The notes beneath the pieces are model-generated. The model did not search any database. It saw only the letters and a program-made list of their open reading frames with translations, and was not told the origin of the DNA. A stretch of 64,000 nucleotides of DNA from Candidatus Spongiisociaceae bacterium. Lineage in GTDB: Bacteria; Actinomycetota; Acidimicrobiia; Spongiisociales; Spongiisociaceae. Location of the stretch: NCBI GenBank assembly GCA_965202665.1, contig OZ241841.1:480001-544000 (forward strand), written 5' to 3'. How positions within the stretch are numbered: position 1 is the stretch's first letter; every line of letters begins with the position of its first letter. A program made the translations under genes and the position numbers. Shown here piece by piece: positions 6,747 to 34,331 of this stretch.

Positions 6747-6774
6747 ACGCTACCCCCCCCCCCCAATTTGTCAA
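6747..6774 (-). promoter_or_regulatory. Sigma70/SigA-type promoter with G12 tract in the spacer (TTGACA-AATT-G12-TAGCGT, 16-nt spacer)
   Basis: Read directly: -35 at 6769-6774, C12 on + strand at 6753-6764, -10 at 6747-6752. Same element precedes all five paralogues. Confidence 0.85.
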
Positions 6775-6816
6775 ATCAAACCTCGATGAAGGCGTCTTCT
6801 ATGTTGCTTATGTTCC

Positions 6817-9800
6817 TCAGTTCCCGCCGGTGGCGGCGGGGGCGAGGTTGACGGCGCGGACGAAGAAAGAGGCCATCTGCGCTCTGGTTACCGGTTTGTT
6901 CGGGCAGTAGTTGAGGGGGGTGGTGGCGCAACCTCTGGTTACGCCTCTGCCGTACATTCCTTCAATAGCCCGGATGATGGCGGGGTCTAGTCCTGTTGCG
7001 TCTTGGAAGAGGTTTTGGGGTTCTTCCACGGATTGGAGGTGGGGAAAGGCGGCGATCATCATGATGGCCATATCGGCCCGGGTTACCACACCGCCGGGGT
7101 TGAAGTTTCCGTCGGTGAGCGCGAAGGCGTTTACGGAGACGCCCCATTCGGCGTAGGTGCGGTACCAAGCATCGGCTGGAACATCGCTGATTTCTATGTC
7201 CTCGGGGGGTTGGATGGTCCAGCGTTGGGAGACGGCGCGGTGGAGGAAGGCGGCCATTTGCCTGCGGGTGATTTGGGCTCCGGGGCAGTATTTGGTGGAG
7301 TCTTCGGTGTCGCAGCCGAGGGTGATTCTCCATCCGGCTATCCGTTCGATGTTGGCTTCATGGACGCTGCCGTCGTCATCGCAGAACCGGCCCTGGCAGA
7401 CCGGTTCGGGGGGAGGCGCAGGGGCCGGCGGGGGCGCGGCGGGCGGCGGGGTGCCGCCTCCTCCCCCTCCGCCTCCACCTCCCCCGCCGCCGCCTCCTCC
7501 TCCGCCGCCGCCTCCGCTACCCCCTCCGCCGCTGGGGCTGGGGGGCGGGGCGTCGTTGGCGGGGATGGCGAGGGTGAGGGTGGCGGGGCTGGGGGTTAAA
7601 CCGGCTGGGGCGGTGGCGGTGAGAACGATTCGTTCAGCTCGTTCTGGGGTGTTGTCGTTGATGATGGTTATGGTCAGGTTGGGGGCCTGGGTTTGCCCGG
7701 CGGGAATGACCGCGGTCAGGTTGCTTATCCGATAGTCGGAGTTACGGATGGCGTCTCCGCCGAGGCTGAAGGTAACGGCGGTGTCGGTGGAAAGCGGGTT
7801 CGATCCGGCGGGGAAGCGGGTAGCGATAGCGGCGGTGGCGCCGGTAGTTTCAGCCACGCTGGTTCGGGAGAGGCTGATTTGGACGCTGGTGGGCGGAGCG
7901 TCGTTGTCTTTGATGGTGAGCGTAGCCGGTTCGACGGTGAACCCGGCCAGCGTTCCGATTATCTGCAAGGTTTCGTCCCCTTCGGCGATGTTGTCGTCGG
8001 CCACGGCGGACAGGGTGATGGTTTGAGGGGTAGCGCTGTTTTGGTTAGCGGAGATGGTCATATCAGCAAGCGCGGAGGCGGTGAAGTCAGACGAAGAAGC
8101 GGTACCCCCGTAGGCCAGACTGACGGTCTGGGAAGCACCTAAAGTTTCCGTACCCGGATAGGCGGCCCGCAGGCTTAGAGTGATGTTGGCGTCCCCTTCG
8201 GTCACCTCGTCTGGCGTGACGGCAAGAATAACAGTCAGGTCATCGTCGAGGATGGACAGCGTGTCCTCCCCGATAGTGAAACCGGCGAGGGTCCCCCCGG
8301 CGACGGTCAACGTTTCCGGCCCCTCAAAAGCCGCATCATTGTATGTTCCATCAGTTCTAAGAACAAAACTGCTAACCCCGCTGGATTGGTAAGCGGGAAT
8401 GGCAACAGTAAAGTCGCCTACCGTTTCGTAATCCGTTCCCTCAGTGGCCTCCCCGGAAGGCTTTCCGACCACAATCGGCACGAAAGTAGCGGCGGAACGG
8501 GTGGCGGTTCCTTGAAAAGCGGCCCGTACCCGCACGGTGGTGCTTGTTCCGCCTTCGGGTACTTGGGTCAGCTCCGCTCCTACCTCGCCGCCGTCATCTT
8601 CATAAAGAGAGACATCGATGACGGTAGGAGGAGAATCGTTGTCGTTTAGGGTCAAACTGGCATCTACCGTCTGGTAGGTGTCGGCGCTGATAGTTACATC
8701 ACTGCCTTCGAAAAGAATGGTCTTCGCCGGTTCGGCAACGCTGTCGTCATTTACAACAATGGTGACATCAGCGAAACTGTTGGTGCTTCCTTGGGCGATG
8801 GTGATGCCGGTGGAGTATCCGCCGGGAGTTCCGGTCGGTTTGGAGGGCCAAGTCACACGGTAGTCCTCCCCATCCGCCCATACGTTGTTAGAGGCCGCAA
8901 CGGCGGTACTGCCCTCGGCTATTCTCAGGCCTACTACCACTCCACCCGAGGGGACGGTGACCCCGGTGGGCAGGGTAGCGGTCACCCGTATAGTGGAGGA
9001 TCCGCTGTTCTCATCCAACGCAGACACGGAACTCCCGGACTTAGCCAGAGTGAGGGTGATGGCGCTGTCTACTACGTTGATAGTGTCAGTATCTGACTCC
9101 GATTCTCCAGCGACGGTGGCGCTTCCGGTTATTTTCACCGTTTCAGTGGTGGCTTCCTGTGTTCCATCGTCCCGGGCGGTCAGCTTGAATGTTCCCGTAT
9201 GGCTGACTTCCCCGGCGGGGATGGTAATGGTAAACGAGTTGCCCGTCTGATCGGTGCAAACATCGTTCTGACCGATCGCGGAGCACGACGCCGCCATCGT
9301 CGCCCCGTTGGAATCCCCGGCCGCTACCGCCACCGTCACATCGGTGCCCGCCGCTAAAGCGGAGGAGGACGCTCCCGCGAACCCGGCGGTTACCGTAACA
9401 TCATGGGCGGCGCCGCTTTCATACACCGTTCCCGGCGACGCGGTGACTTCCAAAGCGGTGTCGCTAGCCCCGATAGTCAACGTGTCCGAAGTTACCGTCA
9501 CGCCGCTTCTCCCAACAACAGTACCGGTGATGGCAAACGTTTCCGCCGCCTCGGTCTCCGCGTCGTCTGCAACCGACAAGCCCGACAAGTTCACCCAAGG
9601 GCTTGCCAGACTGCTTTGCCCGGCGGGGATGGACACCGTGACCGGCGTAGCGGGAGCGGTGAAATCAACACCACCGCCCGCCGCTGACTGCGGCGACGAA
9701 ACCCCGGCGGTGACGCGCACCTGCAGAGCGGATCCTAAATCGTTGGAAGTAGCAGATGTGAACCTGGCCTGTACCCGCACCGCCGCCGTTGCCCCCTCCG

Positions 9801-12378
9801 ACAGGGTCTTCTGCTCCCCGACCATCACATCCGTATCCGCTTTTACAGTCACCCCCAAATCATCATCGGCGATAACCAACGATGTTCCGCTGACCGAAAA
9901 CCCCGTCGCGCTGCCCCCAATGTCGATGCTCTCCGCTCCCTCCGCGATCGTATCCCCGTCAATTAGCAAACCGGTCAACGCCGTAGCCGAGCTGGAGATG
10001 GAACCAGCCGGGATGCTCAACGTCAACGCCGTGCCCGGAGCGGTGAAATCCGCCGCCTCCGCGTTCTCACCCTCGCTGAACGACAACGTAACAGACGTGG
10101 CCCCGGTCAGCTCCGAAGTAGACGCCCCCGCAAACGCGGCCATCACCGACGCCGCACCCGCGTTTGTCGCTCCCTCGCCCACCGACGACGAGCTGAGCGT
10201 CAACTCTATCATTTCCGTGATTTTCAAATCCGCGGGAATAACCGTAAACCCGGCAGCGGAACCGGCGAACCGAATCGTTTCCTCCCCCTCCGCCACCGTG
10301 TCCGACAGGGGAGTAATGGTCACATCCGCGGTTGCCGACGTATCACCCGACGGGATCACCAAGTCCACCGTTTCCGCTCCCCGGTCGTAGTCGCCGCTCG
10401 AACAAGACCGGGACTGGCCGCTCCCCGAACACACCCCCACCGTCGCCGTCCCACCCATAGCACCCACGTCTACGACGACGGACGTCTGCGAAGTCACCGC
10501 GGTTTCGGCGGTGGCTTTCACCCGCACCCTCCGCGCCCCCCCACCCTCCGCTACCCCCGCCAACGCCGCCTCCCCGCTCGCCGCCTCATGCAAAGACAAA
10601 TCCACCCGCGTCCCCGCATCGATAATCGGCAAATCCACCGACTCCACCACCACATCCGACCCGCCCACCGACGCCGTACCCGACACCACCATCTTCTCCC
10701 CCGACTCACCCGTACCATCATCAAGAACCGTCACCGTAAACGTTTCGCTCGCCGACGTCCCACCCGCCGGAATGGAAATCGTGGTCGCATTACCCGTCAA
10801 ACTGGTACAAGCATCATCCCCGCCAGACACCGGACACGACGACGACAAAGCCGCCCCGCCCTCCCCCGCCACCGTCACCGCCACATCAGTAGCAGCTGTC
10901 AGAATAGACGACGACCCCTTAAACCGAGCCGTCACCCTAACCTGCTGCGCCCCCGCCTGCTCCTCCACCGACGACGGAGACACCTCCAACTCAACATCAG
11001 CGTCATCATCATAAATAGTCAACACAGACGACCGAGCGTCCCCCAACGCCGACGACCCACCCACCAAAAAAGTCTCCGGCCCCTCCACCACCGCATCATC
11101 GGTGATCGTCAACCCCGCCAACGTCGCCGTACCCGACGCAGTCACACTCCTAGCCGGAAAAGAAATCGTATTCGCCGTCGACGGAGCATACGAAAAATCA
11201 GCCGCCGCCGCCTTCCCCGCCCCCGCCGGAGTCTGCGCCTCCGCCGACAACGTCACCACCGTCGCCGAAGAAATCACCGACGACGTCGCATTCCAAAAAG
11301 CAGCCGCCACCGACACCCCCGAACCAGACGCCCCCTCCTCCAACACAGCCTGATTCCCATCTTCGCCACCATCGGTATCCACCGTAAAACCCACCCGATT
11401 CGCATCCTTGACAGTAAGCGGGGTTGGGAACGCCGTCCAACCCATCGGAACACCTTGATTTAGCCTAACGTAAAATATCTCATCCGGCTCCACCACCCTA
11501 TCTCTCATAACCCTCAGACCTATATAAGAGATACCACCACCCACACCACTGTGAGTAGACTGAGAAACAGTATTGGCGGGTATGGTCATCCGCTGAATCT
11601 CGTCCCAATTATGTAATTGGTAGACATCGGTGGGACTGCCTTTCGAATCTTTCTGTATAGCGGTCCCGCTATCGAAATACAATTGCATATCCGCCAAAGC
11701 TTGGCCGTATGTCGAAGAAGTAGACTGGGTGAACACACCATTCGTCACCCCACCCAATACAGCCGTCGGTGCAGGTTCATATATATGACCATCGGGTCTA
11801 TTCATAGATTCACCCTCTTCCTTCTCCGGCAAAACCTCATACGACATGTTCACCTTAATCGCCCGATCCTGATCGGTGATAGTCAAAGTAGTCCCAGTCA
11901 CCGTATACCCAGACTTAGAAGCGGTACCGGAGAAGGTGATAGTCTCATGCTCCTCCGTAATCCTATCCGCCCGCGTAAAAAGTTGCCAAGGGATTATATT
12001 ATAACCGATCGTCTGACCCACACCAATAGTAACATTAAAATTAGTAGATGAGTCAATACACGCATCACCACCTCGACACTCCATCCTAGTTTCCAGTAGG
12101 GTAACGGTCCTGTACACATTATTTACGGTAGCGGTCCCACCCCGAGTAACCGTCACCGTCACACTAGAAGTCACCGCCGAAGGCACCGACGCCCTCAAAA
12201 AAAGGTACTTACCCGAAGTAGCACTGTCCTCCCCCACCGAAGTGATCGCGGCTCTGGCGCTCGTCGCCTCCACCACGCTGAGCGTAATCGCCGTCTGCGC
12301 CCCCACCGCCGCCGGCGCAACCGGCAACACCGACCACACCAACCCCGCCGCCAACGACAACACCGCCAACCGCCGCAT
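6817..12378 (-). CDS. Giant secreted Calx-beta-like repeat/SLH protein, paralogue 2 (about 1853 aa, short form)
   Basis: ORF 6817..12429; start moved to ATG 12378 (MRRLAVLSLAAGLVWS, GGAGG upstream). Repeated D-x3-EG-x-ET...L-x-I-x-DDD motifs typical of Calx-beta domains. Poly-Pro/Gly linker. C-terminal repeats with TRRQMA/TRADMA/TRAQMA, SLH-like. Confidence 0.9.
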   Translation of the reverse strand: MRRLAVLSLAAGLVWSVLPVAPAAVGAQTAITLSVVEATSARAAITSVGEDSATSGKYLFLRASVPSAVTSSVTVTVTRGGTATVNNVYRTVTLLETRMECRGGDACIDSSTNFNVTIGVGQTIGYNIIPWQLFTRADRITEEHETITFSGTASKSGYTVTGTTLTITDQDRAIKVNMSYEVLPEKEEGESMNRPDGHIYEPAPTAVLGGVTNGVFTQSTSSTYGQALADMQLYFDSGTAIQKDSKGSPTDVYQLHNWDEIQRMTIPANTVSQSTHSGVGGGISYIGLRVMRDRVVEPDEIFYVRLNQGVPMGWTAFPTPLTVKDANRVGFTVDTDGGEDGNQAVLEEGASGSGVSVAAAFWNATSSVISSATVVTLSAEAQTPAGAGKAAAADFSYAPSTANTISFPARSVTASGTATLAGLTITDDAVVEGPETFLVGGSSALGDARSSVLTIYDDDADVELEVSPSSVEEQAGAQQVRVTARFKGSSSILTAATDVAVTVAGEGGAALSSSCPVSGGDDACTSLTGNATTISIPAGGTSASETFTVTVLDDGTGESGEKMVVSGTASVGGSDVVVESVDLPIIDAGTRVDLSLHEAASGEAALAGVAEGGGARRVRVKATAETAVTSQTSVVVDVGAMGGTATVGVCSGSGQSRSCSSGDYDRGAETVDLVIPSGDTSATADVTITPLSDTVAEGEETIRFAGSAAGFTVIPADLKITEMIELTLSSSSVGEGATNAGAASVMAAFAGASTSELTGATSVTLSFSEGENAEAADFTAPGTALTLSIPAGSISSSATALTGLLIDGDTIAEGAESIDIGGSATGFSVSGTSLVIADDDLGVTVKADTDVMVGEQKTLSEGATAAVRVQARFTSATSNDLGSALQVRVTAGVSSPQSAAGGGVDFTAPATPVTVSIPAGQSSLASPWVNLSGLSVADDAETEAAETFAITGTVVGRSGVTVTSDTLTIGASDTALEVTASPGTVYESGAAHDVTVTAGFAGASSSALAAGTDVTVAVAAGDSNGATMAASCSAIGQNDVCTDQTGNSFTITIPAGEVSHTGTFKLTARDDGTQEATTETVKITGSATVAGESESDTDTINVVDSAITLTLAKSGSSVSALDENSGSSTIRVTATLPTGVTVPSGGVVVGLRIAEGSTAVAASNNVWADGEDYRVTWPSKPTGTPGGYSTGITIAQGSTNSFADVTIVVNDDSVAEPAKTILFEGSDVTISADTYQTVDASLTLNDNDSPPTVIDVSLYEDDGGEVGAELTQVPEGGTSTTVRVRAAFQGTATRSAATFVPIVVGKPSGEATEGTDYETVGDFTVAIPAYQSSGVSSFVLRTDGTYNDAAFEGPETLTVAGGTLAGFTIGEDTLSILDDDLTVILAVTPDEVTEGDANITLSLRAAYPGTETLGASQTVSLAYGGTASSSDFTASALADMTISANQNSATPQTITLSAVADDNIAEGDETLQIIGTLAGFTVEPATLTIKDNDAPPTSVQISLSRTSVAETTGATAAIATRFPAGSNPLSTDTAVTFSLGGDAIRNSDYRISNLTAVIPAGQTQAPNLTITIINDNTPERAERIVLTATAPAGLTPSPATLTLAIPANDAPPPSPSGGGGSGGGGGGGGGGGGGGGGGGGGGTPPPAAPPPAPAPPPEPVCQGRFCDDDGSVHEANIERIAGWRITLGCDTEDSTKYCPGAQITRRQMAAFLHRAVSQRWTIQPPEDIEISDVPADAWYRTYAEWGVSVNAFALTDGNFNPGGVVTRADMAIMMIAAFPHLQSVEEPQNLFQDATGLDPAIIRAIEGMYGRGVTRGCATTPLNYCPNKPVTRAQMASFFVRAVNLAPAATGGN

Positions 12379-12429
12379 CACCCAACCTCCAATCCTCCAC
12401 ACGGCGCCGCGAACCGGCACCCTACGCAA

Positions 12430-12456
12430 ACGCTACCCCCCCCCCCAATATGTCAA
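12430..12456 (-). promoter_or_regulatory. Promoter with G11 tract (TTGACA-TATT-G11-TAGCGT, 15-nt spacer)
   Basis: -35 at 12451-12456, C11 at 12436-12446, -10 at 12430-12435. Confidence 0.85.
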
Positions 12457-12597: not shown

Positions 12598-15500
12598 TTA
12601 TGAGCCGGCGGCGGCGGGGGCGAGGTTGACGGCGCGGACGAAGAAGGAGGCCATCTGCGCTCTGGTTACGGGTTTGTTGGGGCAGTAGTTGAGGGGGGTG
12701 GTGGTGCAGCCTCTGGTTACGCTTCTGCCGTACATTCCTTCGATGGCCCGTATTATCGTCGGGTCTAGTCCTGTTGCGTCTTGGAAGAGGTTTTGGGGTT
12801 CTTCTACGGGTTGGAGGTGGGGGAAGGCGGCGATCATCATGATGGCCATGTCGGCTCGGGTTACTACTCCGCCGGGGTTGAAGTTTCCGTCGGTGAGTTC
12901 GAAGGCGTTTATGGAGACGCCCCATTCGGCGTAGGTGCGGTACCAGGCGTCTTGGGATACGTCGTTGATTTCTATGTTTTGGGGGTTTTGGATGGTCCAG
13001 CGTTGGCTGACGGCGCGGTGGAGGAAGGCGGCCATTTGCCTGCGGGTGATTTGGGCTCCGGGGCAGTATTTGGTGGAGTCGGTGGCGTCGCAGCCGAGGG
13101 TGATTCTCCATCCGGCTATCCGTTCGATGTTGGCTTCATGGACGCTGCCGTCGTCGTCGCAGAATCGTCCTTGGCATGCCGGTTCGGGGGGAGGCGCGGG
13201 GGCGGGTGGGGGCGCGGTCGGCGGGGCGGCCGGGGGCGGTGGGGCTGGGGCGCCGCCGCCTCCTCCTCCGCCGCCACCTCCTCCGCCGCCACCTCCCCCG
13301 CCGCCACCTCCGCCTCCGGCGGGCGGGTTTCCTCCGCTGGGAGCGGGGGGTGGGGCGGGGGGTGGGGCGTCGTTGTCGGTGATGGTGAGGGTGAGGGTGG
13401 AGGGGTTGGGGGTTAATCCGGCTGGGGTGGCGGCGGTGAGGACGATTCGTTCGTTTGGTTCGTCGTCGGTGTCATGGAGGATGGTTATGGTGAGGTTGGG
13501 GGCTTGGGTTTGCCCGGCGGGGATGACCGCGGTCAGGCTGTTTATTCGGTAGTCGGAGTTGCGTTGGGCGTTTCCGCTGAGGGTGAAAGCGACGGCGGTG
13601 TCGGTGGGGAGCGTGTCGGACCCGGCGGGTAAGCGGGTGGCGATGGTAGCGGTAGCGCCGGTAGTTTCAGCCAGGTTGTTGGCGGAGAGGCTGATTTGGA
13701 TGCCGGCGGGCCGGTCGTCGTCGTCTTTGATAGTGAAGACGGCGGGGGTGACGGCGTATCCGGCGACCGTTCCGGTTATTTGCAAGGTTTCGTCTCCCTC
13801 GGCAATGCTGTCTTCGGTGGTTTGCAGGGCGAAGGTGGGGAGGGTGGCGCTGTTTTGGTTGGCGGGGATGGTCAGAGAGGTAAGAGAGGGGGCGGTGTAG
13901 TCAGCTCCGGCGACGGCGTCTCCTCCGAGGGCCAGGTTTACGGTTTGGGAAGTGGTGAGGGCCGCGCCCGGGTAGGCGGCTCGCAGGGTTGCGGCCGCGA
14001 CCGCGTCGCCTTCGTTCACCTCGTCTGGGGTGAGGGTGAGGGTGATGGTTTCGTCGTCGATGATGGTGAGGGTGTCTTGCCCGATAGTGAAACCGGCGAG
14101 GGTTCCGCCGGCGACGGTCAACGTTTCGTTCCCTTCAAGGTTTTCGTCGTCATATGTTCCGTCGGTTTTGAGGGTGAAAGTGCCGGTTCCGCTGGTTTGG
14201 TAGGGGTCGATCACCAAGTTGAAGGCGCTTACCGTTTGATAATCGGTTCCTGGTGTGGATTCCCCGGCGGCTTTACCGACCACAATCGGCACGGAAGTTG
14301 CGGCGGAGCGGGTGACGGTTCCCTGAAAAGAAGCCCGCACCCACACTACATCTTCGCCGCCTTCAGGTACTTGGGTAAGCGCCGCCCCGATGTCGCCTTC
14401 GTCGTCGCGGTGGAGGGCGAGGTCGATGTTGGCGGGCGGGTCGTCGTTGTCGCTGATAGTAAGCGCGGCGGCTACCGCGTGGTAGACGACGCTGCTGATG
14501 GTTACCGTGCTGCCGTTGACGGTTATGGTTTTGTCCGGTTCGTCTACGCTGTCGTCGTTTACCGTGATGGTAATATCGGCGGCGCCGCTGGTTTGCCCCT
14601 GCGCGATGGTGACGCCGGTGGCGTATCCATCAGGAGTGGAGGCTGGTTTGGGGGGCAGGCTGATCCGGTAGTCTTCTTGTTCCGTCCAGACGTTGTCGGA
14701 GTCCGCAGTAGCGCTACCGGCTATGTTCAGGCCTACAACCACCCCGCCGGAGGGGACGGTCGTACCGGTGGGGATGGTGGCGGTCACCCGTATGGTGGCA
14801 GACGCGCTGCTCTCGGACAACGTAGATATGGCGTTGTTGTTGGAGGCGTTGGTTAGGGAAAGGGTGATGCCGCTGTCTACAACGTTGATAGTGTCGGAAT
14901 CCGATTCTGATTCTCCGGCGACGGTGGCCGAGCCGGTTATTTTCACCTTTTCCACGCTTTCCGGCGTGTTGTCGTCCCGGGCGGTCAGCTGGAACGTTCC
15001 CGTATGGCTGGTTTGCCCGGCGGGGATGGTGACGGTAAACGAGTTGCCCGTCTGATCGGTGCAAACATCGTTCTGTCCGATCGCGGAGCACGACGCCGCT
15101 ACCGTCGCTGGGTCGGTGTCCCCGGCCGCTACCGCTACCGTCACCGCGGTGCCCGCCGACAAAGCCGATGAGGTCGCTCCGGCGAACCCGGCGGTCACCC
15201 TTATCGTATGAGCAGAACCGCTTTCATGCACCGTCCCCGGCGACGCGGCAACCTCCAAAGCGGTGTCGCTGGCCCCGATAGTCAACGTATCCGAAGTTAT
15301 CGTCACGTCGCTTCTCCCGGAAACGGTACCGGTGATGGCAAAGGTCTCCGCCGGTTCAGTCACAGTGTCGTCCGTAACCGCAAGTCCTGTCAGGTTCGCC
15401 CATGCGCTTTCCAGGCTGCTTGTACCGGTGGGAATGGACACCGTAACCGGCGTAGCGGGAGCGGTGAAATCTGTTCCCCCGCCCACCGCCGACTCCGGCG

Positions 15501-19668: not shown

Positions 19669-19724
19669 CACCCAACCTCCATCTTCGCTTCCGGTCCAAC
19701 CCGTAAACGGGACCGATGCGAAAA

Positions 19725-19752
19725 ACGCTACCCCCCCCCCCCAATTTGTCAA
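19725..19752 (-). promoter_or_regulatory. Promoter with G12 tract (TTGACA-AATT-G12-TAGCGT, 16-nt spacer)
   Basis: -35 at 19747-19752, C12 at 19731-19742, -10 at 19725-19730. Confidence 0.85.
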
Positions 19753-19777
19753 ATTAAGCCTCCGCGCCAGCGGAGGC
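19751..19777 (-). terminator. Probable intrinsic terminator of paralogue 4, abutting the -35 of paralogue 3
   Basis: Perfect 8-bp stem GCCTCCGC-N4-GCGGAGGC (19758-19777), followed on the minus strand by TTAATTT. Lies about 57 nt after the paralogue 4 stop. Confidence 0.55.
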
Positions 19778-22800: not shown

Positions 22801-25800
22801 CCGCAGTCACCCGCACCTGCAAAGCAGACCCTAAATCGTTGCTGGTAGCAGTAGCGAACGCCGCCCTTACCCGCACCGCGACCGTCTCGCCCTCCGACAA
22901 GGTTTTCTGATTCCCGCTTTCCACGCCGTCAGTATCCGCTGTCAGGGTTACGTCTAGATCGTCGTCGGTGATGACCAGCGTCGTTCCGCTGACCGCGAAC
23001 CCCCCGGCGGTGCCGTCGATGTTGATGGTTTCCGCGTCCTCGGCGATGGTGTCCCCTGTTATCAGCAAACCAGACAAAGCGACCGCGGAGCTGGTGGTGG
23101 CGGAGGCGGGGATGGTCACCGTTACCGCAGTGCCTGGTGCGGTGAAATCCGCCGCTTCCGCGTTTTCGCCCGCCCCGAACGACAAAGTTACGTCGGTGGC
23201 TTGGGTGAGAGAGGAACTGGACACCCCCGCGAATGAGGCGGTAACGGTCACCGCTCCGGCGTTGGCGTCTCTTTCATCCACCGTGGACTGACTGAGAGCC
23301 AAAACGATCGTTTCCAGAATGGGCAGGTCAGCGACTGCGACCGCCGGTAGATACCCGGTGGCGGAAGCGGTGAAACGGATGGTTTCCGCTCCCTCCATTG
23401 TCCCGTCATCCCGGGGAGTGAGCACGACATCCGCCGTCCCGCTGGTATCACCGCTGTTGATGGTAATAGGCGCCGTAGCGGCCCCGCGGGTGTAATCCCC
23501 GGTTGCCCCCAGAGTGGCGGTCCCGCCCGCGGCTCCTACGTTTACCGTGACTGTAGTGTTGGACGCGGCGGCTTTGCCGAGGGTGGCTTTCACCCGCACC
23601 GTCTGCGCGCCTCCGTTCTCGGTAATCCCCGACAGAGCAGGGGCGTCGCTGGACGGCTCGTGGAACGACAAAGTAAGTGCCCGGGTTGGGTCGTATACTT
23701 CCAGCTGGGCGGGGGTTACCGAGCCTATGGTGGTGGTACCGGTGAGTTTCAGGTTTTCTATGTCCTCGTTGTTGTCCATGTCATTGCGGGCTTGCAGTTG
23801 GAAGGAACCCGAGGCGTTGAGGTCCCCGGCGGGGATGCTGACCGTGAACTGATTGTTCGTCTGATTAGTACACACATCCGCCGCTGTCGGCGTTATGGAA
23901 CATACCGCTGAATCTACCGTCGCGCCGTTGGTGTCCCCCGCCCCGACCGTGACTGTCACCGGGGTGGCCGCTGACAGTACCGAGGTGGCTCCTTGGAAGC
24001 GGGCGGTTACCGTTATCTGATGAGCCGCCGCTTGTTCCACCACCCCGGTAGGCGACGCCGACAGCGTCACGTCAACATCGTCGTCGACGATGGTCACCTT
24101 CTCTGAAGCCACCGTCGCTCCGCCTGTTGCGGTGCCGGTGATGAGGAACGTTTCCGCTCCTTCCGCTATCGTGTCATCCGCTACCGACAACCCGGTTAGG
24201 TTCACCCAGCCGCTTTGCAGGGCGGTTCCGGTGGGTATCGTCACCGTCGCCGCCGCGCCGGGGGCGGTGAAATCGACACCCCCGCCGGTAGCTGACACCG
24301 GCGAACCCTCCCCGGCGGTTACTTGAATCTGGTAAGCAGCGGACAGGTCGTTGGTAGTAGCGGTGGTGAACGCGGCCCGTACCCGCACCGCCGCCGTTTC
24401 CCCCTCCGGCAAAGTTTGCTGCTCCCCGGTGGCGCTGTCGGTGTCCGCGGTTAACGTAACTCCCAGGTCGTCGTCGGTTATGGTCAGCTCCGTTCCGCTC
24501 ACCCCGAACCCGTCCGCCGTTCCCCCAACATCGATTTTCTCCTCCCCTTCCGCGATCGTATCCCCCGTAATCAACAAACCGGTCAAAGCGGCGGCGGAAC
24601 TGGAGGTGGAACCAGCCGGGATGCTCAACGTGAGCGCGGCGCCCGGGGCGGTGAAATCCAGCGTCTCCGCCTCCTCACCCGCACCGAACGACAACGTAAC
24701 AGCCGTCGCCCCGGTTAGCGTCGAAGAAGACGCCCCCGCAAACGCCGCGGTTACCGTCGCCGCCCCCGCGTTTGTTGCGCTCTCGCCTATTGATGACTGA
24801 CTGAGCGTCAACTCAATCGTTTCCGTGATCTTCAAATCAGCGGGAAAAATAGTGAACCCGGCAGCGGAACCGGTGAACCTAATCGTCTCCGCTCCCTCCA
24901 CCACCGTGTCCGACAAACCGGTGATCGTCGCATCCGCCGTACCAGACGACTCACCCGACGCAATCGTCACATCCACCGTTCCCGATCCCGGGTCGAAGTC
25001 GCCGCTCGTGCACGACCGCCCCGGACCGCTCCCCGTGCACGTCCCCAACGTCGCCGTACCCCCCGCAGACCCCACATTCACGCTGATCGTCGTGTCCGAG
25101 GTCACCGCCGCCCCCGCAGTGGCCTTCACCCGCACCGTCTGCGCCCCCCCATCCTCCGCGATCCCCGCCAAAACAGCCTCCCCCGCCGCCGCCTCATGAA
25201 AAGACAAATTAACCTTCGTCCCCGCATCGATAATCGGCAAATCCGCCGACTCCACTACTACCGCCGACCCGCCCACCGACGCCGAACCCGACACCCTAAG
25301 CTTCTCCCCCGACTCACCCGCACCATCATCAGGAACCGTCACCGAAAACGTAGCGCTCGCCGACGTACCACCCGCCGGAATAGAAATCGTCGTCGCATTG
25401 CCCGTCAAACTGGTACAAGCATCATTCCCGCCGGCCACCGGACACGCCGACGACAAAGAAGCCCCACCCGCCCCCGCCACCGACACCGCCACAGCAGTCG
25501 CAGTTGTCAGGATCGACGACGACCCTTTGAACCGGGCCGTCACCGTAACCTGACGCGCCGCCGCCTGCTCCTCCACCGACGACAAAGACCACCCCAACTC
25601 AATATCAGCATCATCATCATAAATCGTCAACTCCGACTCCGCAATCGTGTACTCAGAACCCAAACTAGACGTCCCCCCGCCAAACGTCAACGTCTCCGGC
25701 CCCTCCACCACCGCATCATCAACCACCGACAAACCCGCCAACGACCCATTACCGCTCTTCACCGCGCCAGCGGGAATAGAAAACGTGCTCGCAGACGACG

Positions 25801-27040: not shown

Positions 27041-27067
27041 ACGCTACCCCCCCCCCCAATTTGTCAA
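27041..27067 (-). promoter_or_regulatory. Promoter with G11 tract (TTGACA-AATT-G11-TAGCGT, 15-nt spacer)
   Basis: -35 at 27062-27067, C11 at 27047-27057, -10 at 27041-27046. Confidence 0.85.
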
Positions 27068-27106: not shown

Positions 27107-30100
27107 TCAACCCGATTCTTCGGTGGTGGTGGGGGCTTGGTTGATTACTCTTACGAAGAAGGACGCCATCTGGGCGCGGGTTACCGGATTGTTGGGGCAG
27201 TATCTGAGAGGCGGCGTGGTGGTGCATCCTCTGGTCACTTCGCTTTCGGCTATGCCTTCTATGGCCCTTACCACGGCCGCGTCCAGGTTGGCGGTGTCGG
27301 CGAACAGGTTTTGGGATTCGGATACGGCTTGGATGTGGGGGAAAGCAGCTACCATCATGACCGCCATGTCGGCTCGGGTTACTATGCCCCTGGGGTTGAA
27401 GTTCCCGTCGTCTAGTTGGAAGGCCCCGATGGATACTAGCCAGTTGGCGTAGGGGCGGTAGCTGGCGTCGGCGGGGACGTCGTTGATTGTTACGCCGGTG
27501 GGGATTTGGATGGGCCAGCGGGGGTTGACGGCGCGGTAGATGAAGGTGGCCATTTGCCTGCGGGTGATTTGGGCGCTGGGGCAGTATTTGGTGGGGTCGT
27601 TGGCGTCGCATCCGATGGTTATTCCCCATTCGGCCATTAGCGCGATGTTGGGTTCGTGGACGCTGCCGTCGTCGTCGCAGAACCGACCCTGACAGGCCAC
27701 CGGCGCGGGAGGCGGCGGTGCGGGCGCGGCGGGCCCAGCCGGGGGTGGGGCCCCTCCTCCTGCGGCGGGAGGCGGGGCTCCGCCTCCTCCTCCTCCGGCG
27801 GCGGGGGGCGGCGCGGCCGGCGGCGGCGCGCCTCCACCGCCTCCTCCGCCGCCGGTGGGTGGGTTGGGGGTGGTGGTTGGTGGCGGCGGGGGCGGGGGCG
27901 GGGGTGCGCTGTTGCGGATGGTGAGAACGGCGGGGGTGATGGTGAACCCGGCGAGGGTTCCGTTTATTTGGAGGGTTTCGTTTGGTTCGGGGCCGTCGGT
28001 GTTGGGGATGGTTATGTTGAAAGTTGCGGTTCCGGTTTGCGTTGCGGGGCGGATGGTTATGGTGGTGGGCTGGTTGGTGATTTGGTAGTCGGCGGGGGTG
28101 GTGGTGCTGTCGGGGCCGGGGATGGTTATAGCCACGGAGGTGGTTTCAGATCGGGTGGTGGAGCCGTCCAGCCGGGCGGTGATGGTGATCTGACGGTTGT
28201 TTGCTCCTTCGTCTAAGCCGGATGGGCTGGTGGTGAGGGTGATGCCGGTGGGTGGGTCGTCGTTGTCTTTGATAGTGAAGGTGGCGGGGGTGATAGTGAT
28301 TCCGGCGGAGGTTCCAGTTATCTGTACGGTTTCATCCGGTTCATCGATGCTGTCATCGGTGATAGGCAAGCTGAGGGTTCGGGTAACGCTGTTTTGATTA
28401 GCGAGGATGGTTAGGGGGGTGAGGGCGGGGGCGGTGTAGTCGGCTCCGGCGGTGGCGGTTCCTCCGAGGGCCAGGGTTATGGTGTGGGGGTTGGGGAGGG
28501 TCTCCCCGGTCGGGTAGGCGGCTTGTAGGGTTACGGACGTGTTGGTGTCTCCTTCGGTCCCTTGGTTCGGGGTGAGGGTGAGTGTAACGGTCAGGTCGTC
28601 GTCGATGAGGGTGAGGGTATCTTGCGCGATCGTGAATCCGGCGAGCGTTCCACCGGCGACGGTTAGCGTTTCCGGGCCCTCAAAGTTGTTGTCGTTGTAT
28701 GTTCCGTCGGTTTTGAGCAGGAAAGTATCGGTGCCGCTGTTTTGGTAGCCGGGGATTTCCACATTGAAGTCGGCTACCGTTTGGTAGTCGGTTCCTTCGG
28801 TGGCTTCCCCGGTTTTGCCAACCACGATGGGGACGAAGGTGGCGGCGGAGCGGGTGGCTGTTCCCTGGAAGGTAGCTACCACCCGCACCCGGGTTTCTTC
28901 GTTTTCATGGGCTTCGGTGAGGTGTTCCCCACTACTGTCGGCCCGGGTGCTGTGCAAGGTGAGAGTGACAGCAGTGGGAGGGCCGTCGTTGTCGTTGATG
29001 GTGAGAGCGGCGGCTACCGTGTGATAATCCACATTGTTGATTGTTACATGACTGCCGTCGATGATTATCCTTCTTGTCGGTTCGTCGACGTTGTCATCGT
29101 TTACCGTAATATCTATATCCACGTAGCCGGTTTTGGTACCGGCGGCGATGGTGATACCGGTGTTGTAGCCGGAGGGGGTTCCGCTCGGTTTAGAGGGCCA
29201 GGCCACTCGGTAGTCTTCCCGGTTGGTCCAAACCCGGTTGGAGTCCGCGGTGGCGGTGCTGTCCTCGTCGATCTCCAAACCCACCACCACACCGCCGGTA
29301 GGGGCGTTCACCGGCAGGGTAGCGGTAACCCGCACAGTGGTTGTTCCGCTGTTTTCCGCCAACGCGGACACCGCGCTGTTGCTGGAGGGGTTGGTCAGGA
29401 CAAGCCGGATGCCGCTGTCCGCGATGTTGATAGTCGTAGAATCGGAGGCGGCTGTTCCGGCGACGGTGGCCGAACCGCTGATTTTCACCGTTTCCGCAGT
29501 AGTTTCCGCATCAGTATCAACCCGGGCGGTCAGCTGAAACGACCCCGTATGATGATGCTGACCAGCCGGAATGCGGATAGTGAACGAGTTGCCCGTCTGG
29601 TCGGTGCACACATCTTCAGTCATCGACGGAGAGCATGCCGTCGCCACCGTCGCTCCGTTGGAATCCCCGGCCGCTACCGTAACCGTCACGTCGGTGTTGG
29701 TTGCCAGCGCGGAGGAGGTCGCTCCGGCGAACCCGGCGGTGACCGTTATGTTGTGGGCGTCGGTGCTTTCCGTCACCCTCCCCGGCGACGCGGTTACCTC
29801 CAAAGCGGTGTCGCTGGCCCCGATAGTCAACGTATCCGGGGTAATCCCCACGCCGCTGTTCACCGACGTCCCCGCGATTCTGAACGTTTCCGCCAACTCC
29901 GTCACCGCATCATCCGTAACCAACAGGCCCGTCAAGTTCGTCCAGGCGCTTTGGGTTTGCCCGGCGGGGATGGACACCGTGACCGGGGTGGCGGGAGGGG
30001 TGAAATCTATTCCCCCCGCCTCAGCCGACGCCGGCGACAAAGCCTCCGCGGTCACGCGTACTTGCAGAGCGGATCCTATATCGTTGCTGGTAGCAGTCGT

Positions 30101-33100
30101 GAACGCGGCTCGTACCCGCACCGCAACCGTCTCTCCCTCCGACAAAGTTTTCTGATTCCCGCTTTCCACGCCGTCAGTATCCGCCGTCAGGGTCACTTCT
30201 AGATCATCGTCTGTGATAACCAGCGTCGTTCCGCTAACCGCAAACCCCCCAGCGGTACCGTCGATGTCAATACTCTCCGCGTCCTCCGCGATGGTGTCCC
30301 CCGTAATCAGCAAACCGCTCAACGCAACGGCGGAGCTGGTGGTGGCGGAGGCTGGGATGGTCACCGTGATCGCGGTGCCCGGGGCGGTGAAATCCGCCGC
30401 CTCCGCGTTCTCACCCGCCCCGAACGACAAGGTTACGTCGGTGGCCTGGGCGAGCGAGGAACTGGACGCCCCCGCAAAAGAGGCGGTAACAGTCACGGCT
30501 CCGGCGTTGGCGTCTCTTTCATCCACCGTGGACTGACTGAGGGCCAAAGTGATCGTCTCCAGGATCGACAAATCAGCGACCGCGGGCAGATACCCGCCGG
30601 TAGCGGAAGCGGTGAAACGAATAGTTTCCGCCCCCTCAATCGTCCCATCATCGCGGGGAGTGAGTACGACATCCGCCGTCCCACTGGTTTGGCCGCTAGC
30701 GATGGTGATAGTCGCCGTGCTACTCCCGCGGGTGTAATCCCCAGTCGCTCCCAAAGCGGCGGTTCCGCCCGCAGCCCCTACATTTACAGTCACCGTGGCT
30801 GACGACGAAGCGGCTGCGCCGAGGGTGGCTTTCACCCGCACCGTCTGCGCCCCCCCATCCTCGGTAATCCCCGACAAGGCCGGAGCGGCGCTGGTCGGCT
30901 CATGGAAAGACAAAGTAACCGCCCGACCCGGATCGAAAACACCCATCTGAGCGGACGCCACCTGACCTATAGAAGTAGAACCAGTCAGTTTCAAATACTC
31001 GATACCCTCAGTGTCATCCCCATCGGCGCGGGCCCGCAGCTGAAAAGAACCCGAACCGCTGACATCCCCGGCGGGGATGCTGACCGTGAACTGATTGTTC
31101 GTCTGGTTAGTGCACACATCCGCTGTCATCGTCATCGTAGAACATACCGCGGTATGCACCGTCGCGCCGCTGGTGTCCGCCGACCCAACCGTTACCGTCA
31201 CCGGAGTAGCCGCCGACAACACCGAAGTAGCCCCCTGAAAACGGGCCGTTACCACTATCTGATGATCCGCCGTCCGTTCCACCACCTCCGCCGGCGACGC
31301 CGACAAAGACACATCCACATCATCATCAACGATAGTTATCGTCTCCGCAACCACCGTCCCGCCTGTCGCGGTACCGGTGATGAGAAAAGTCTCCGCTCCC
31401 TCCGCTACCGTGTCATCCGCCACCGACAGGCCGGTGAGATTCACCCAGCCGCTTTGCAGGGCGGTTCCGACGGGCATAGTCACCGTCGCAGTCGTGCCGG
31501 GGGCGGTGAAATCAACACCCCCGCTGGTCGCCGACACCGGAGAACCCTCCTCCGCGGTCACCTGAACCGTATACGCGGCGGTCAAGTCGTTGGTAGTAGC
31601 TGATGTGAACCGGGCCCGTACCCGTACCGCCGCCGCCTCACCCTCCGGCAGGGTTTGCTGCTCCCCGTTCGTGCCGCTATCGGTGTCCGCCGTTAACGTA
31701 ACCCCCAGATCATCGTCGTTTATGGTCAGCTCCGTTCCGCTCACCACAAACCCATCCGCCGTCCCCTCAACATCGATTTTCTCCTCCCCCTCCGCGATCG
31801 AATCAGACGTAATCAGCAAACCGGTCAGAGCGGTAGCGGAACTGGAGGTGGAAGAAGCCGGAATACTCACCGTGATCGCGGTGCCGGGAGCGGTGAAATC
31901 CAACGTCTCCGCGTTCTCGCCCGCCCCGAACGACAACGTAACAACCGTCGCCCCCGTCAACATCGAAGTAGCAGCCCCCGCGAACGCGGCCGTCACCGTG
32001 GCCGCCCCCGCGTTCGTCGCGCTCTCGCCTATTGACGGCTGGCTGAGGGTCAACGTAATCTCTTCGGTGATTTTCAAATCCGCGGGGAACACGGCAAACC
32101 CGGCGGCGGAACCGGTGAACTGAACCGTTTCCTCCCCCTCCGCCACCGTATCCGACAAAGGAGTAATAGTCACATCCGCCGTCCCGGAAGTCTCACCCGA
32201 CGCAATCGTCACATCCACCGTCGCCGCCCCCCGATCGTAGTCGCCGCTTGCGCAAGACCGGGACTGTCCGCTACCCGTGCATGTCCCCAAAGTCGCCGTA
32301 CCCCCCGCCGCCCCCACATTCACGCTAATCGTCGTATCCGAGGTCACCGCCGCTCCCGCCGTAGCCTTCACCCGCACCGTCTCCGCCCCCCCACCCTCCG
32401 CTATCCCCGCCAGCGCCGCCTCGCCCGCCGTCGCTTCATGCAACGACAGATCCACCCGCGTCCCCACATCCACAATCGGCAAATCCACCGACTCCACCGT
32501 CACCGCCGTCCCGCCCACCGACGCCGAACCCGACAGCGTCAGCTTCTCCCCCGACTCGCTCGTACTATCATCAGGAACCGTCACCATAAACGTGCCGGTC
32601 CCCGACGTCGCACCCGCCGGAATAGACACCGTCATCTGATTATTAGTCAAACTAGTACAAGCATCGTTCGTATTCGCCGGACACCCCAAAGAAGCCCCAC
32701 CCGACCCCGCCACCGACACCGTCACATTTGTAGCAGTCGTCAGAATCGACGACGAACCCTTAAACCGGGCGGTCACCGTAACCTGCTGCGACCCCGCCTG
32801 CTCATCCACCGACGACGGAGACACCTCCAACTCAATATCAGCATCGTTGTCATATATCGTCAACGTGTCCGCCGTAGCGGTTCCCAAAGCCGACGACCCA
32901 CCCACCTCAAAAGTTTCCGGTCCCTCCACAATCGTATCATCGGTGATCGTCAAACCAGCCAACGTAGCCGAACCCGAAGCAGTGATACTCCGAGCCGGGA
33001 AAGAAATCGTATTCGCCATCGACGGAGCATACGAAAAATCAGCCGCAGTCGCCTTCCCCGCCCCCGCCGGAGTCTCCGCCGCCGCCGACAACGTCACCGT

Positions 33101-34246
33101 CGTCACCGAAGAAATTTGCGACGACGTCGCGTTCGGAAAACTAGCCGACACCGACACCCCCGAACCGGAATCCCCCTCCGTCAACACATCCTGATCCCCT
33201 ATAGCCTCACTATCGGTATCCACCGTCAAACCCACCTGACTATTAGCATCCTTAATCGTAACCGGAGCCCTTAACACCGTCCAACCTGACGGGACGGATT
33301 GCAACCCAACATAAAAAACCTCATCCGACTCCGCCGCCTCATCCCTCATAACTAGTGAAAAGAAAAAAACAAGAGGGCTATCTACGCCGTGAAAACTCCC
33401 AGAAACCTGACCGGCGGTTATCCTCGCACCAATAGGATCATCATTGTTACTATTATGGGATGAAACGACATCCGCAGGAAAATCATCATTTGAATTGACC
33501 GACTGCAGATGGGTAGCGGTTCCCGCCTCTGTCACTATTCGCATAAGCCTCGTATCTCCCCTCTGTTGGTACGCTAAATCTTGGCCGTACGTTGAAGAAG
33601 TAGAAGCAGTGAACACACCACCCTTCACCCCACCCACCACAACCGATGGCCCAGGTCTATGTAGAAAACCATGAGCACGGTTATCACCGGCTGGCGTAAC
33701 CTGATCCTCCCGCAACACATCCCGCGATAAGTTCACCTTAATCACCCGGTCCTGATCGGTAATCCTCAAAGTAGCCGGAGTTACCGTATACCCAGAAGCG
33801 GAACCGGAAAAAATGATGGTCTCATGCTCCTCCGTAATCCTATCCGACCGCAGTTCAATCGTAAAATTAGTAGACGTAACACTTGTTTGATTCCTATGAA
33901 TAGTTAAATTCCAAGGCTCATTAGCACAGTAATCACCAGAATTGCAAACAAGCCTCGGAGGACGGTGCCGATCATACGCATTCAAATTTACACGCACTCC
34001 TTCAGTGGCAGTACCGGATAACGCCCTGATGCTAATCCGCAAATTGGAGGACGGCGCCGAAGCCACCGACGCCCTCAACCGCACAACCTTCGAACCGCTA
34101 TCCTCCCCCAGCGTGGTCACCGCGTTACCCGAAGGATCAACCACACTGAACGTAATCGCCGTCGCCGCCCCCACCACCGCAGGCACGGCCGGCAACACCG
34201 ACAGGACCAAACCCGTCGCCAACGCCAACAGCCCCAGCCGTCGCAT
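27107..34246 (-). CDS. Giant secreted Calx-beta-like repeat/SLH protein, paralogue 5 (about 2379 aa)
   Basis: ORF 27107..34249 (GTG-ATG); ATG 34246 with GGAGG upstream. Same architecture. Confidence 0.9.
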   Translation of the reverse strand: MRRLGLLALATGLVLSVLPAVPAVVGAATAITFSVVDPSGNAVTTLGEDSGSKVVRLRASVASAPSSNLRISIRALSGTATEGVRVNLNAYDRHRPPRLVCNSGDYCANEPWNLTIHRNQTSVTSTNFTIELRSDRITEEHETIIFSGSASGYTVTPATLRITDQDRVIKVNLSRDVLREDQVTPAGDNRAHGFLHRPGPSVVVGGVKGGVFTASTSSTYGQDLAYQQRGDTRLMRIVTEAGTATHLQSVNSNDDFPADVVSSHNSNNDDPIGARITAGQVSGSFHGVDSPLVFFFSLVMRDEAAESDEVFYVGLQSVPSGWTVLRAPVTIKDANSQVGLTVDTDSEAIGDQDVLTEGDSGSGVSVSASFPNATSSQISSVTTVTLSAAAETPAGAGKATAADFSYAPSMANTISFPARSITASGSATLAGLTITDDTIVEGPETFEVGGSSALGTATADTLTIYDNDADIELEVSPSSVDEQAGSQQVTVTARFKGSSSILTTATNVTVSVAGSGGASLGCPANTNDACTSLTNNQMTVSIPAGATSGTGTFMVTVPDDSTSESGEKLTLSGSASVGGTAVTVESVDLPIVDVGTRVDLSLHEATAGEAALAGIAEGGGAETVRVKATAGAAVTSDTTISVNVGAAGGTATLGTCTGSGQSRSCASGDYDRGAATVDVTIASGETSGTADVTITPLSDTVAEGEETVQFTGSAAGFAVFPADLKITEEITLTLSQPSIGESATNAGAATVTAAFAGAATSMLTGATVVTLSFGAGENAETLDFTAPGTAITVSIPASSTSSSATALTGLLITSDSIAEGEEKIDVEGTADGFVVSGTELTINDDDLGVTLTADTDSGTNGEQQTLPEGEAAAVRVRARFTSATTNDLTAAYTVQVTAEEGSPVSATSGGVDFTAPGTTATVTMPVGTALQSGWVNLTGLSVADDTVAEGAETFLITGTATGGTVVAETITIVDDDVDVSLSASPAEVVERTADHQIVVTARFQGATSVLSAATPVTVTVGSADTSGATVHTAVCSTMTMTADVCTNQTNNQFTVSIPAGDVSGSGSFQLRARADGDDTEGIEYLKLTGSTSIGQVASAQMGVFDPGRAVTLSFHEPTSAAPALSGITEDGGAQTVRVKATLGAAASSSATVTVNVGAAGGTAALGATGDYTRGSSTATITIASGQTSGTADVVLTPRDDGTIEGAETIRFTASATGGYLPAVADLSILETITLALSQSTVDERDANAGAVTVTASFAGASSSSLAQATDVTLSFGAGENAEAADFTAPGTAITVTIPASATTSSAVALSGLLITGDTIAEDAESIDIDGTAGGFAVSGTTLVITDDDLEVTLTADTDGVESGNQKTLSEGETVAVRVRAAFTTATSNDIGSALQVRVTAEALSPASAEAGGIDFTPPATPVTVSIPAGQTQSAWTNLTGLLVTDDAVTELAETFRIAGTSVNSGVGITPDTLTIGASDTALEVTASPGRVTESTDAHNITVTAGFAGATSSALATNTDVTVTVAAGDSNGATVATACSPSMTEDVCTDQTGNSFTIRIPAGQHHHTGSFQLTARVDTDAETTAETVKISGSATVAGTAASDSTTINIADSGIRLVLTNPSSNSAVSALAENSGTTTVRVTATLPVNAPTGGVVVGLEIDEDSTATADSNRVWTNREDYRVAWPSKPSGTPSGYNTGITIAAGTKTGYVDIDITVNDDNVDEPTRRIIIDGSHVTINNVDYHTVAAALTINDNDGPPTAVTLTLHSTRADSSGEHLTEAHENEETRVRVVATFQGTATRSAATFVPIVVGKTGEATEGTDYQTVADFNVEIPGYQNSGTDTFLLKTDGTYNDNNFEGPETLTVAGGTLAGFTIAQDTLTLIDDDLTVTLTLTPNQGTEGDTNTSVTLQAAYPTGETLPNPHTITLALGGTATAGADYTAPALTPLTILANQNSVTRTLSLPITDDSIDEPDETVQITGTSAGITITPATFTIKDNDDPPTGITLTTSPSGLDEGANNRQITITARLDGSTTRSETTSVAITIPGPDSTTTPADYQITNQPTTITIRPATQTGTATFNITIPNTDGPEPNETLQINGTLAGFTITPAVLTIRNSAPPPPPPPPPTTTPNPPTGGGGGGGGAPPPAAPPPAAGGGGGGAPPPAAGGGAPPPAGPAAPAPPPPAPVACQGRFCDDDGSVHEPNIALMAEWGITIGCDANDPTKYCPSAQITRRQMATFIYRAVNPRWPIQIPTGVTINDVPADASYRPYANWLVSIGAFQLDDGNFNPRGIVTRADMAVMMVAAFPHIQAVSESQNLFADTANLDAAVVRAIEGIAESEVTRGCTTTPPLRYCPNNPVTRAQMASFFVRVINQAPTTTEESG

Positions 34247-34303
34247 CACCCAACCTCCATCCTTCGCTTCCGGCCCAACCCGTATCAGGACCGACTACGA
34301 GAA

Positions 34304-34331
34304 ACGCTACCCCCCCCCCCCAATTTGTCAA
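34304..34331 (-). promoter_or_regulatory. Promoter with G12 tract (TTGACA-AATT-G12-TAGCGT, 16-nt spacer)
   Basis: -35 at 34326-34331, C12 at 34310-34321, -10 at 34304-34309. Confidence 0.85.

Follow-up and report, generated by a model that had tools for sequence, protein, structure and literature searches.

Poly-G tracts in promoter spacers as probable length dials for SLH-anchored surface proteins of a sponge actinobacterium

The window, that is, the whole 64-kb stretch of DNA analyzed here, belongs to a genome (G000) that is available as one 2.77-Mb contig with 64% GC and an estimated completeness of 94%. It contains an array of five genes for large surface proteins, all on the minus strand. 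Surface protein 1 (27107..34249; 2380 aa) has a signal-peptide-like N-terminus, a variable tip of approximately 300 residues, a conserved β-sandwich stalk, a Pro/Gly linker, and a C-terminal SLH region, and surface protein 2 (19835..26983; 2382 aa) shares this architecture. Surface protein 3 (12598..19671; 2357 aa) gave Calx-beta and SLH matches, and surface protein 4 (6817..12381; 1854 aa) is a shorter subtype with about 50% identity to the other array proteins. Surface protein 5 (1..6698; 2392 aa) is encoded by the last gene of the array, which leaves the window and ends at position 479520 of G000.

The description of these proteins as SLH-anchored and Calx-beta-like, first made from the sequence letters in an initial annotation, was borne out by domain and structure searches. 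SLH scored above the cut-off in all four complete array proteins and Calx-beta just above the cut-off in three of the five; homologues are metagenome proteins bearing both domains, and the first Atlas match was a Calx-beta/SLH cluster at 0.90. A structure model of residues 30–470 of surface protein 1, built from 34 sequences, contains β-structure only (pLDDT 86), and Foldseek searches with this model retrieved tandem Ig-like chains, among which were Calx CBD12 and the extender of an RTX adhesin; TM-scores were low. Comparison of eight long paralogues showed 34 to 62% identity at residues 56–337 and mostly 74 to 88% along the stalk, with a dip to approximately 62% at residues 1993–2107, after which the Pro/Gly linker and the SLH repeats follow. 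Such a build, in which a variable tip is carried by a constant stalk anchored to the wall, is consistent with a repertoire of alternative adhesins or antigens. Comparison of the tip region with viral contigs yielded no relative.

Each array gene is preceded by an element of the form TTGACA-N4-G11/12-TAGCGT on the minus strand. In promoter 1 (34304..34331), TTGACA (34326–34331) is followed by AATT, a G12 tract (34310–34321), and TAGCGT (34304–34309), which gives a spacer of 16 nt between the putative −35 and −10 boxes. The same order is found in promoter 2 (27041..27067; AATT, G11 at 27047–27057, spacer 15 nt), promoter 3 (19725..19752; AATT, G12 at 19731–19742, spacer 16 nt), promoter 4 (12430..12456; TATT, G11 at 12436–12446, spacer 15 nt), and promoter 5 (6747..6774; AATT, G12 at 6753–6764, spacer 16 nt). 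On the forward strand, the tracts thus read as C-runs of 12, 11, 12, 11, and 12 at 6753, 12436, 19731, 27047, and 34310. The distance from tract to start is 54 to 63 nt, and GGAGG lies ahead of each start. A sequence check confirmed these five elements, their tract lengths, and their spacers as initially described, as well as the observation that the window holds no comparable G/C run, the next longest being 8. Another TAGCGT (45639..45644, plus strand) had been noted six nucleotides ahead of the GTG of uppP; it is indeed there, the gene at 45651 being uppP (BacA match, E 3.6e-65), and this leaderless-type −10 serves as a control for the hexamer. Since the five array promoters are paralogous, they do not represent five independent origins. 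An Rfam search of the window detected one tRNA and nothing else.

Every array gene has its own boxes and its own ribosome site. Immediately ahead of the −35 box of promoter 1, a predicted hairpin of −17.4 kcal/mol followed by TTGATTT (34337..34366, minus strand) is a putative terminator, which would stop transcription entering from the phosphotransferase gene upstream. A hairpin scan also revealed a terminator-like hairpin of eight pairs, seven of them G-C (19758..19777, minus strand), with a T-rich tail that enters the −35 box of promoter 3; the terminator-like scan as a whole yielded 16 sites versus 13.3 by chance, and is weak on its own. The hairpins preceding the −35 boxes are strong at promoters 1 and 3 (−17.4 and −17.5 kcal/mol), moderate at promoters 2 and 4 (−13.3 and −10.5 kcal/mol), and weak at promoter 5 (−4.4 kcal/mol). 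With hairpins that span −17.5 to −4.4 kcal/mol, read-through between array genes is possible, and the original statement that each gene toggles independently goes further than the sequence does.

The five promoters are a real observation and an incomplete one, amounting to about a fifth of the genome-wide set (5 of 24). Twenty-four of the 75 long G/C runs in G000 lie in elements of the type TTGACA-N4/5-G11-13-(T)-TAnnnT, with spacers of 15 nt (eight cases), 16 nt (11 cases), and 17 nt (five cases). Fourteen of them precede members of the C-terminal-SLH family to which the array belongs (1.8–4.5 thousand aa) and nine precede an N-terminal-SLH family (about 1.2–1.4 thousand aa; FG-GAP in two of three proteins scanned); the remaining one precedes an 85-aa frame that is followed by a DNA methylase-HNH gene. 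For a set of 24 promoters with outputs that are predicted to be graded rather than binary, the proposed figure of 2^5 surface combinations does not apply. Not every SLH gene is equipped in this way, as 24 of the 51 genes matched by these proteins carry a G-tract promoter.

Related genomes contain the element too: the strict form of the pattern occurs in three of 30 other genomes, and a backwards control pattern gave zero matches across 31 genomes. In the sister species G001, 26 regions fetched around pattern matches contained 43 such promoters, with spacers of 15 nt (19 cases), 16 nt (15), 17 nt (two), and 18 to 23 nt (seven), and with tracts that reach lengths of 13 to 19. When the 24 promoters of G000 and the 43 of G001 are combined, lengths of G11 or G12 account for 61 of 67 tracts, and 53 of 67 promoters have spacers of 15 to 16 nt. 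A tandem TTGAC-TTGAC or TTGAT-TTGAC precedes the tract in many of these promoters. A pattern scan across all species returned at least 124 stretches, which are spread over many phyla and in most cases number no more than two in a genome; among metagenome contigs, 32 matches were recovered, with no coverage of the five array loci.

The sequences that flank the tracts look like σA-type promoter boxes. The downstream hexamer takes eight forms in the 67 promoters, every one of which is TAnnnT, and TAnnnT is found within 0 to 2 nt after all 24 tracts of G000 that are linked to TTGACA versus one of 51 other tracts. These features of anatomy and box conservation are direct observations. In 2324 genes of G000, delimited with a crude gene caller, TAnnnT peaks at 6 and 7 nt before starts (107 and 103 genes), with only 3 to 16 at distances of 3 to 5 and 10 to 19 nt, as expected for leaderless actinobacterial promoters; TAGCGT itself is outside the 25 commonest TAnnnT forms at 6 to 7 nt. 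A σ70 scanner, which does not score TAGCGT, found nothing above chance. A GGGTAG-type −10 is the stress-σ consensus, and a promoter of that kind was considered and rejected, the promoters of genome G009 breaking GGGTA and keeping TAnnnT.

Tract-free promoters provide an estimate of which spacers work. In 1209 tract-free upstream regions, TTGAC[AT]-TAnnnT pairs were found zero times at 15 nt, five times at 16 nt, 15 times at 17 nt, six times at 18 nt, and four times at 19 nt, so that the 17-nt optimum presumed at the outset holds for G000. Three tract-free paralogues of the N-terminal-SLH family have 16-nt promoters. Based on these sequence counts, a spacer of 15 nt is likely to be silent, 16 nt usable, and 17 nt, as predicted, best. 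Because 16-nt spacers occur in five tract-free promoters and in the three tract-free paralogues, G12 is more likely to be partly on, which departs from the initial scheme of G11–12 as low or OFF and G13 as ON. G11 and G12, the commonest lengths, straddle the predicted off/on boundary, and one slip would therefore matter. As in switches of the porA/tp0126 type, a homopolymer of at least nine residues lies between the predicted −35 and −10 boxes, and the tract lengths straddle the usable range (spacers of 15–23 nt in tract promoters versus 16–19 nt in tract-free ones). The 67 near-identical promoters, with their 15- to 23-nt spacers, form a natural series for studying spacer rules.

The G/C run spectrum of the genome is bimodal in appearance, with 865 runs of 7, 96 of 8, one of 9, none of 10, and 75 of 11 or more; the long runs comprise 24 of 11, 28 of 12, 14 of 13, and nine longer ones. 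The sister species has no runs of 9 or 10 and 81 of at least 11. Three genomes of a sister genus contain 74, 76, and 44 long runs, with G9 and G10 present too, the other 14 family members have 0 to 22 each, and outside the family three of 12 genomes have any long run. Fragmentation does not explain this pattern, because no more than 3 to 15 long runs were counted in three genomes of another genus that are each assembled as a single contig. The complete lack of G10, seen against 156 long tracts in two genomes, means that contraction below 11 rarely becomes fixed, which suits a stable floor and a switch alike.

Of the 75 long runs in G000, 59 (approximately 80%; assigned by script) are situated inside or close to surface or defense genes, whereas the same gene sets, which make up 18% of the genome, take 10 to 12% of the shorter comparison runs (387 of 3452 runs of length 6, 90 of 865 of length 7, and 12 of 96 of length 8). 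This enrichment is partly circular since genes next to tracts provided the seeds for the gene sets. In the assignment by script, defense genes account for 32 tracts and surface genes for 27; of the other 16, three are surface promoters that the mask missed. As in Campylobacter-type phasomes, tens of long G/C runs beyond background are thus situated at surface and restriction-modification (RM) genes, with the partial circularity of the gene sets in mind, and no MutS-type mismatch repair was detected (G000, 94% complete).

The nonpromoter tracts lie in or beside genes for N6/N4 methylases, four Type ISP enzymes, Type I HsdM/HsdS, and Eco57I-type enzymes, with further ones in or beside Hma helicases and methylases, SspB, and PDC-M33A. 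Several in-gene tracts at defense genes are out of frame. One Type ISP copy is in frame through G11, and its neighbor, 96% identical beyond the tract, is frameshifted at G13; in-gene tracts therefore occur both in and out of frame, which is again a Campylobacter-type feature. tblastn searches for split halves at three other in-gene tracts left two of the three unconfirmed. In addition, three LRR-protein genes, two of them encoding more than 10,000 aa, have poly-C in predicted 18- to 19-nt spacers. In 12 regions of the sister genus that were picked for clustered tracts, the same two protein families have the layouts TTGATT-AATC-Gn-TAGTAT and TTGC-Gn-N8-TATAAT, and this genus adds a second tract in the signal-peptide codons of both families. 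Of the signal-peptide tracts in G009, seven are in frame at G11 and two are out of frame at G12, and a pair among them has the same printed flanks; one of three is in frame in G004. Together, the run spectrum, the gene classes, and the frame-breaking lengths constitute the genomic signature of simple-repeat contingency loci that had been suspected. The repeated recruitment of a tract into spacers, combined with frameshifting tracts in the same genes, is the strongest argument for selected switches.

Variation in tract length was assessed using assembled contigs from eight of 22 sequencing runs; contigs drop rare variants, and run X3 was too shallow. One difference concerns promoter 2 (27046), for which run X5 has a contig with one extra G at a depth of 55.6, compared with 51 to 54 for neighboring single-copy contigs. 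Simulation from the reference showed that reference paralogues do not produce this extra G, which is likely a strain difference at this locus or at a look-alike one. The tract at 34310 is G12 in both X1 and X5; the contig of X10 stops at 34310, where the reference predicts a stop at 34307, which is a hint of a branch only. The G12 tract at position 1466368 of G000 (spacer 17 nt), the one promoter tract with unique flanks among those compared, was bridged without gaps in all four of four runs from four studies, one of them probably the source, and the surrounding 1.8 to 2.0 kb are free of differences in three of these runs. Such invariance is evidence against free drift, and selection for the on-state at this locus could explain it. 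Among promoter pairs with at most three flank mismatches, tract length differs in four of nine and is equal in five.

Some apparent variants were discarded. A one-C deletion at 19731 in X1 was traced by simulation to a G11 paralogue at position 2626546 of G000, and heterogeneity at position 1460534, suggested by contig ends in X2, X6, and X7, is explained by a shared paralogue word, as judged by inspection. A G10 contig at the latter position, in X2 (depth 14.8) and X12 (depth 105.3), has no source in the reference and is indistinguishable from library stutter.

The actinobacterial nature of the host, proposed at the start, is supported by gene content: G000 has five WhiB genes and NucS, and searches of this 94% complete single contig gave no match for MutS (MutS_V) or, in G000, for RbpA. 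NucS loss and DinB expansion were considered as causes of the tracts and rejected, as NucS is intact and there is one DinB. NucS without MutS is common to tract-free relatives and therefore does not explain the tracts. A 4-kb stretch of the window occurs in 20 of the 22 runs, some of which are sponge and marine metagenomes, and sponge run X7 provided long contigs with about 1 to 2% differences from G000.

We consider it probable that these data reflect a known switching mechanism, operating at unusual scale in an unexpected host, in which each spacer tract is a heritable length dial. A rather different view is that the element is a stereotyped, mostly stable promoter, one ancestral G-rich version of which spread by duplication, with G11–G12 as a mutational equilibrium that survives only where selection is weak and with lengths that tune expression slowly between lineages instead of switching it within one population. 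The paralogy of the promoters, the predominance of G11 and G12 (61 of 67), and the unchanged consensus length at two loci in other samples would all suit such a promoter. Yet at least four different layouts place a tract in the spacer, another genus has an additional, frame-breaking tract in the same families, G001 tracts extend to 13–19, and one cassette precedes two protein families and a methylase locus. In light of these observations, we find a stable promoter unlikely.

Tracts could also vary and obey another length-output rule, with a regulator or the stiffness of poly-G making 15 to 16 nt the working range, or with read-through coupling the genes. This would account for the 53 of 67 tract promoters at 15 to 16 nt; a factor could bind the tandem TTGAC-TTGAC or TTGAT-TTGAC motifs, the hairpins before promoters 2, 4, and 5 are comparatively weak, and RbpA was not found in G000. 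However, 15-nt spacers are absent from the tract-free promoters, every gene comes with boxes and a ribosome site of its own, and porA and tp0126, with the same type of tract, obey a 17-nt rule (PMC7864442), which makes another rule quite improbable. Least probable by far is that length differences or long runs are sequencing or assembly artifacts. Homopolymers longer than 10 are error-prone, and lengths of G-tracts in databases can differ from those in the population, as stated in the text of PMC9187656; nevertheless, G12 was recovered at two loci in contigs assembled from independent sequencing runs, G9 and G10 are seen in other genomes of the family that consist of a single contig, and the long runs sit at specific gene classes. 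As to the existence of the tracts, the artifact explanation is largely refuted.

Returning to the length dial, slipped-strand gain or loss of one G would move the spacer between a predicted off-state at 15 nt, predicted partial output at 16 nt, and predicted full output at 17 nt, giving each gene a heritable and reversible setting. Promoter activity, its dependence on length, and the rate of switching are deduced here from sequence patterns. The cassette stands before 24 genes in G000, in-gene tracts likely switch RM and other defense genes by frameshifting, and the array is part of approximately 75 candidate contingency loci. With MutS apparently absent, a length-dependent slippage bias may hold the tracts at G11–G13, across the predicted off/on boundary, so that cells would display differing subsets of stalked proteins with variable tips. 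The selective pressure would most plausibly be phage or host recognition. A sponge host has no adaptive immunity; if the proposal is true, 75 candidate loci in such a host would suggest that phage or innate recognition is the driving force. An extended version of the proposal, to which we give somewhat less than an even chance, is that a likely non-pathogenic sponge actinobacterial genus has a phasome of pathogen scale, in which a portable terminator-promoter G-run cassette stands before 24 to 43 variable-tip proteins, the G11 floor lies at the silent spacer, a setting from which a slip of a single base activates the gene and below which no slip becomes fixed, approximately 30 further tracts switch anti-phage enzymes, and the sister genus gates the same genes twice, in transcription and in frame.

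Several known systems share parts of this design. The vlp genes of Mycoplasma hyorhinis are a clustered surface family with combinatorial expression and a homopolymer in each promoter spacer; unlike the poly-G SLH array, they have poly-A and encode a few lipoproteins of a wall-less pathogen. Neisseria meningitidis porA and Treponema pallidum tp0126 have, according to the text of PMC7864442, poly-G between −35 and −10 and a 17-nt optimum. The likeness lies in poly-G in the spacer of a surface-protein gene, but porA and tp0126 are single genes of human pathogens for which variation and activity were measured, whereas the cassette studied here stands on 24 to 43 genes and is known from sequence. 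The same source describes the Treponema tpr genes (tprE, G, J, F, I, and L) as paralogous surface genes, each with its own promoter poly-G, so that one promoter tract per paralogue is common to both systems. However, tprE, G, and J are permissive with at most eight G and the tract of tprL overlaps with the −10 region, as reported there (PMC7864442), whereas the present tracts lie within the spacer; tpr genes are also far fewer and encode outer-membrane proteins rather than SLH-anchored stalks.

On the genomic scale, a close parallel is Campylobacter, for which the text of PMC8355987 gives 18 to 39 G/C tracts in C. jejuni and more than 50 for two species, a lack of functional mismatch repair, and confinement of C. 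jejuni tracts to G9–G10 by opposing length biases. Both systems have tens of G/C tracts per genome with confined lengths; Campylobacter tracts are mostly in-gene at G9–G10, whereas about one-third of those described here are in promoter spacers, with a mode of G11–G12 and a floor of 11. Bifidobacterium breve, in which G11/G12 slippage controls pilus structures and promoter-spacer tracts are mentioned as unstudied (PMC9187656), is an actinobacterial, non-pathogenic precedent for control of surface structures; it has two in-gene tracts and no paralogous promoter family. A comparison of sponge Actinobacteriota found Calx-beta, LRR, and RM genes to be enriched, and its main text contains neither "phase variation" nor "SLH" (PMC11706023). 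If the length dial is real, the enriched Calx-beta/LRR surface proteins of that comparison (PMC11706023) would be expressed by only part of the population. The initial annotation knew of no such system for SLH-anchored Calx-beta-like proteins in an actinobacterium; the mechanism and the arrangement of one tract per paralogue are known elsewhere, and the literature searched (main texts only, with thin coverage of subscription papers) contained no report of phase variation in a sponge symbiont. What is new here, compared with these systems, is the scale, the G11 floor, and the host, a likely non-pathogenic marine symbiont.

The genus comprising the source genome (G000, a single 2.77-Mb contig) and its sister species (G001) has a hard floor in the length of its G/C homopolymer runs. 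When the two whole genomes were pooled, a single run of 9–10 nucleotides was found, and 156 runs reached 11 or more. G/C run counts showed no such floor in the sister genus. The longest G/C run in G000 comprises 33 G at position 640404, where a 253-aa frame that carries no annotation ends.

Within the family of giant, SLH-bearing surface proteins found in the window, the only G13 member (17-nt spacer) extends downward from G000 7091 (stretch L234) and stops a few residues short, within the final SLH motif. At G001 3085121 (L035), a tract promoter precedes a 42-aa frame in which a signal peptide is joined to the family's last residues, a structure that suggests loss of nearly the entire surface-protein gene by deletion. 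In many copies of the promoter, including that at window 12451–12461, the sequence at the −35 box is a tandem, either TTGAC-TTGAC or TTGAT-TTGAC, which may represent an extra −35 element five bases upstream or a site for a factor. A 116-nt intergenic element follows gene 3 of the array (window 12481–12595) and gene 5 (G000 479404–479519); these are its only two copies, are 90% identical, and gave no match in Rfam. The one Rfam match in the window is a minus-strand tRNA gene at 39513–39586.

Tracts occur at other gene classes in G000. Poly-C lies in the predicted promoter spacers, currently 18–19 nt, of three LRR genes, which encode two giant LRR and Calx-beta proteins of 10,399 aa (1141275–1172471; L218) and 12,667 aa (2390400–2428400; L228) and a 1,402-aa LRR protein (2168253–2172458; L226). 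A C12 tract is also found upstream of a 7,962-aa gene at 1652599, where clear promoter boxes are absent. The surface-gene promoter cassette (TTGACA, 4–5 nt, G tract, TAnnnT) is present at 845879–846205 (L222), upstream of an 85-aa frame that is followed by a methylase-HNH gene; the homologous start in G001 (L029) begins an 889-aa protein. At 1214100–1234000 (L205), three tandem Type ISP restriction-modification genes contain 11 G tracts in total, grouped at the specificity end; one gene is full length, and the other two stop early at a tract.

In the sister genus, surface genes of stretches L237–L248 (G009, G004, and G013) combine a promoter-spacer tract with a G tract in the signal-peptide codons. 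As read from this arrangement, they would be under double control, by the spacer tract and by a frame-setting signal-peptide tract. Among the matches listed (L043–L122), TTGACA-N3-6-G11+-TAnnnT was found in genomes of many phyla, mostly in one or two copies per genome; these include two genomes of Dehalococcoidia and several of gut Bacilli/Clostridia.
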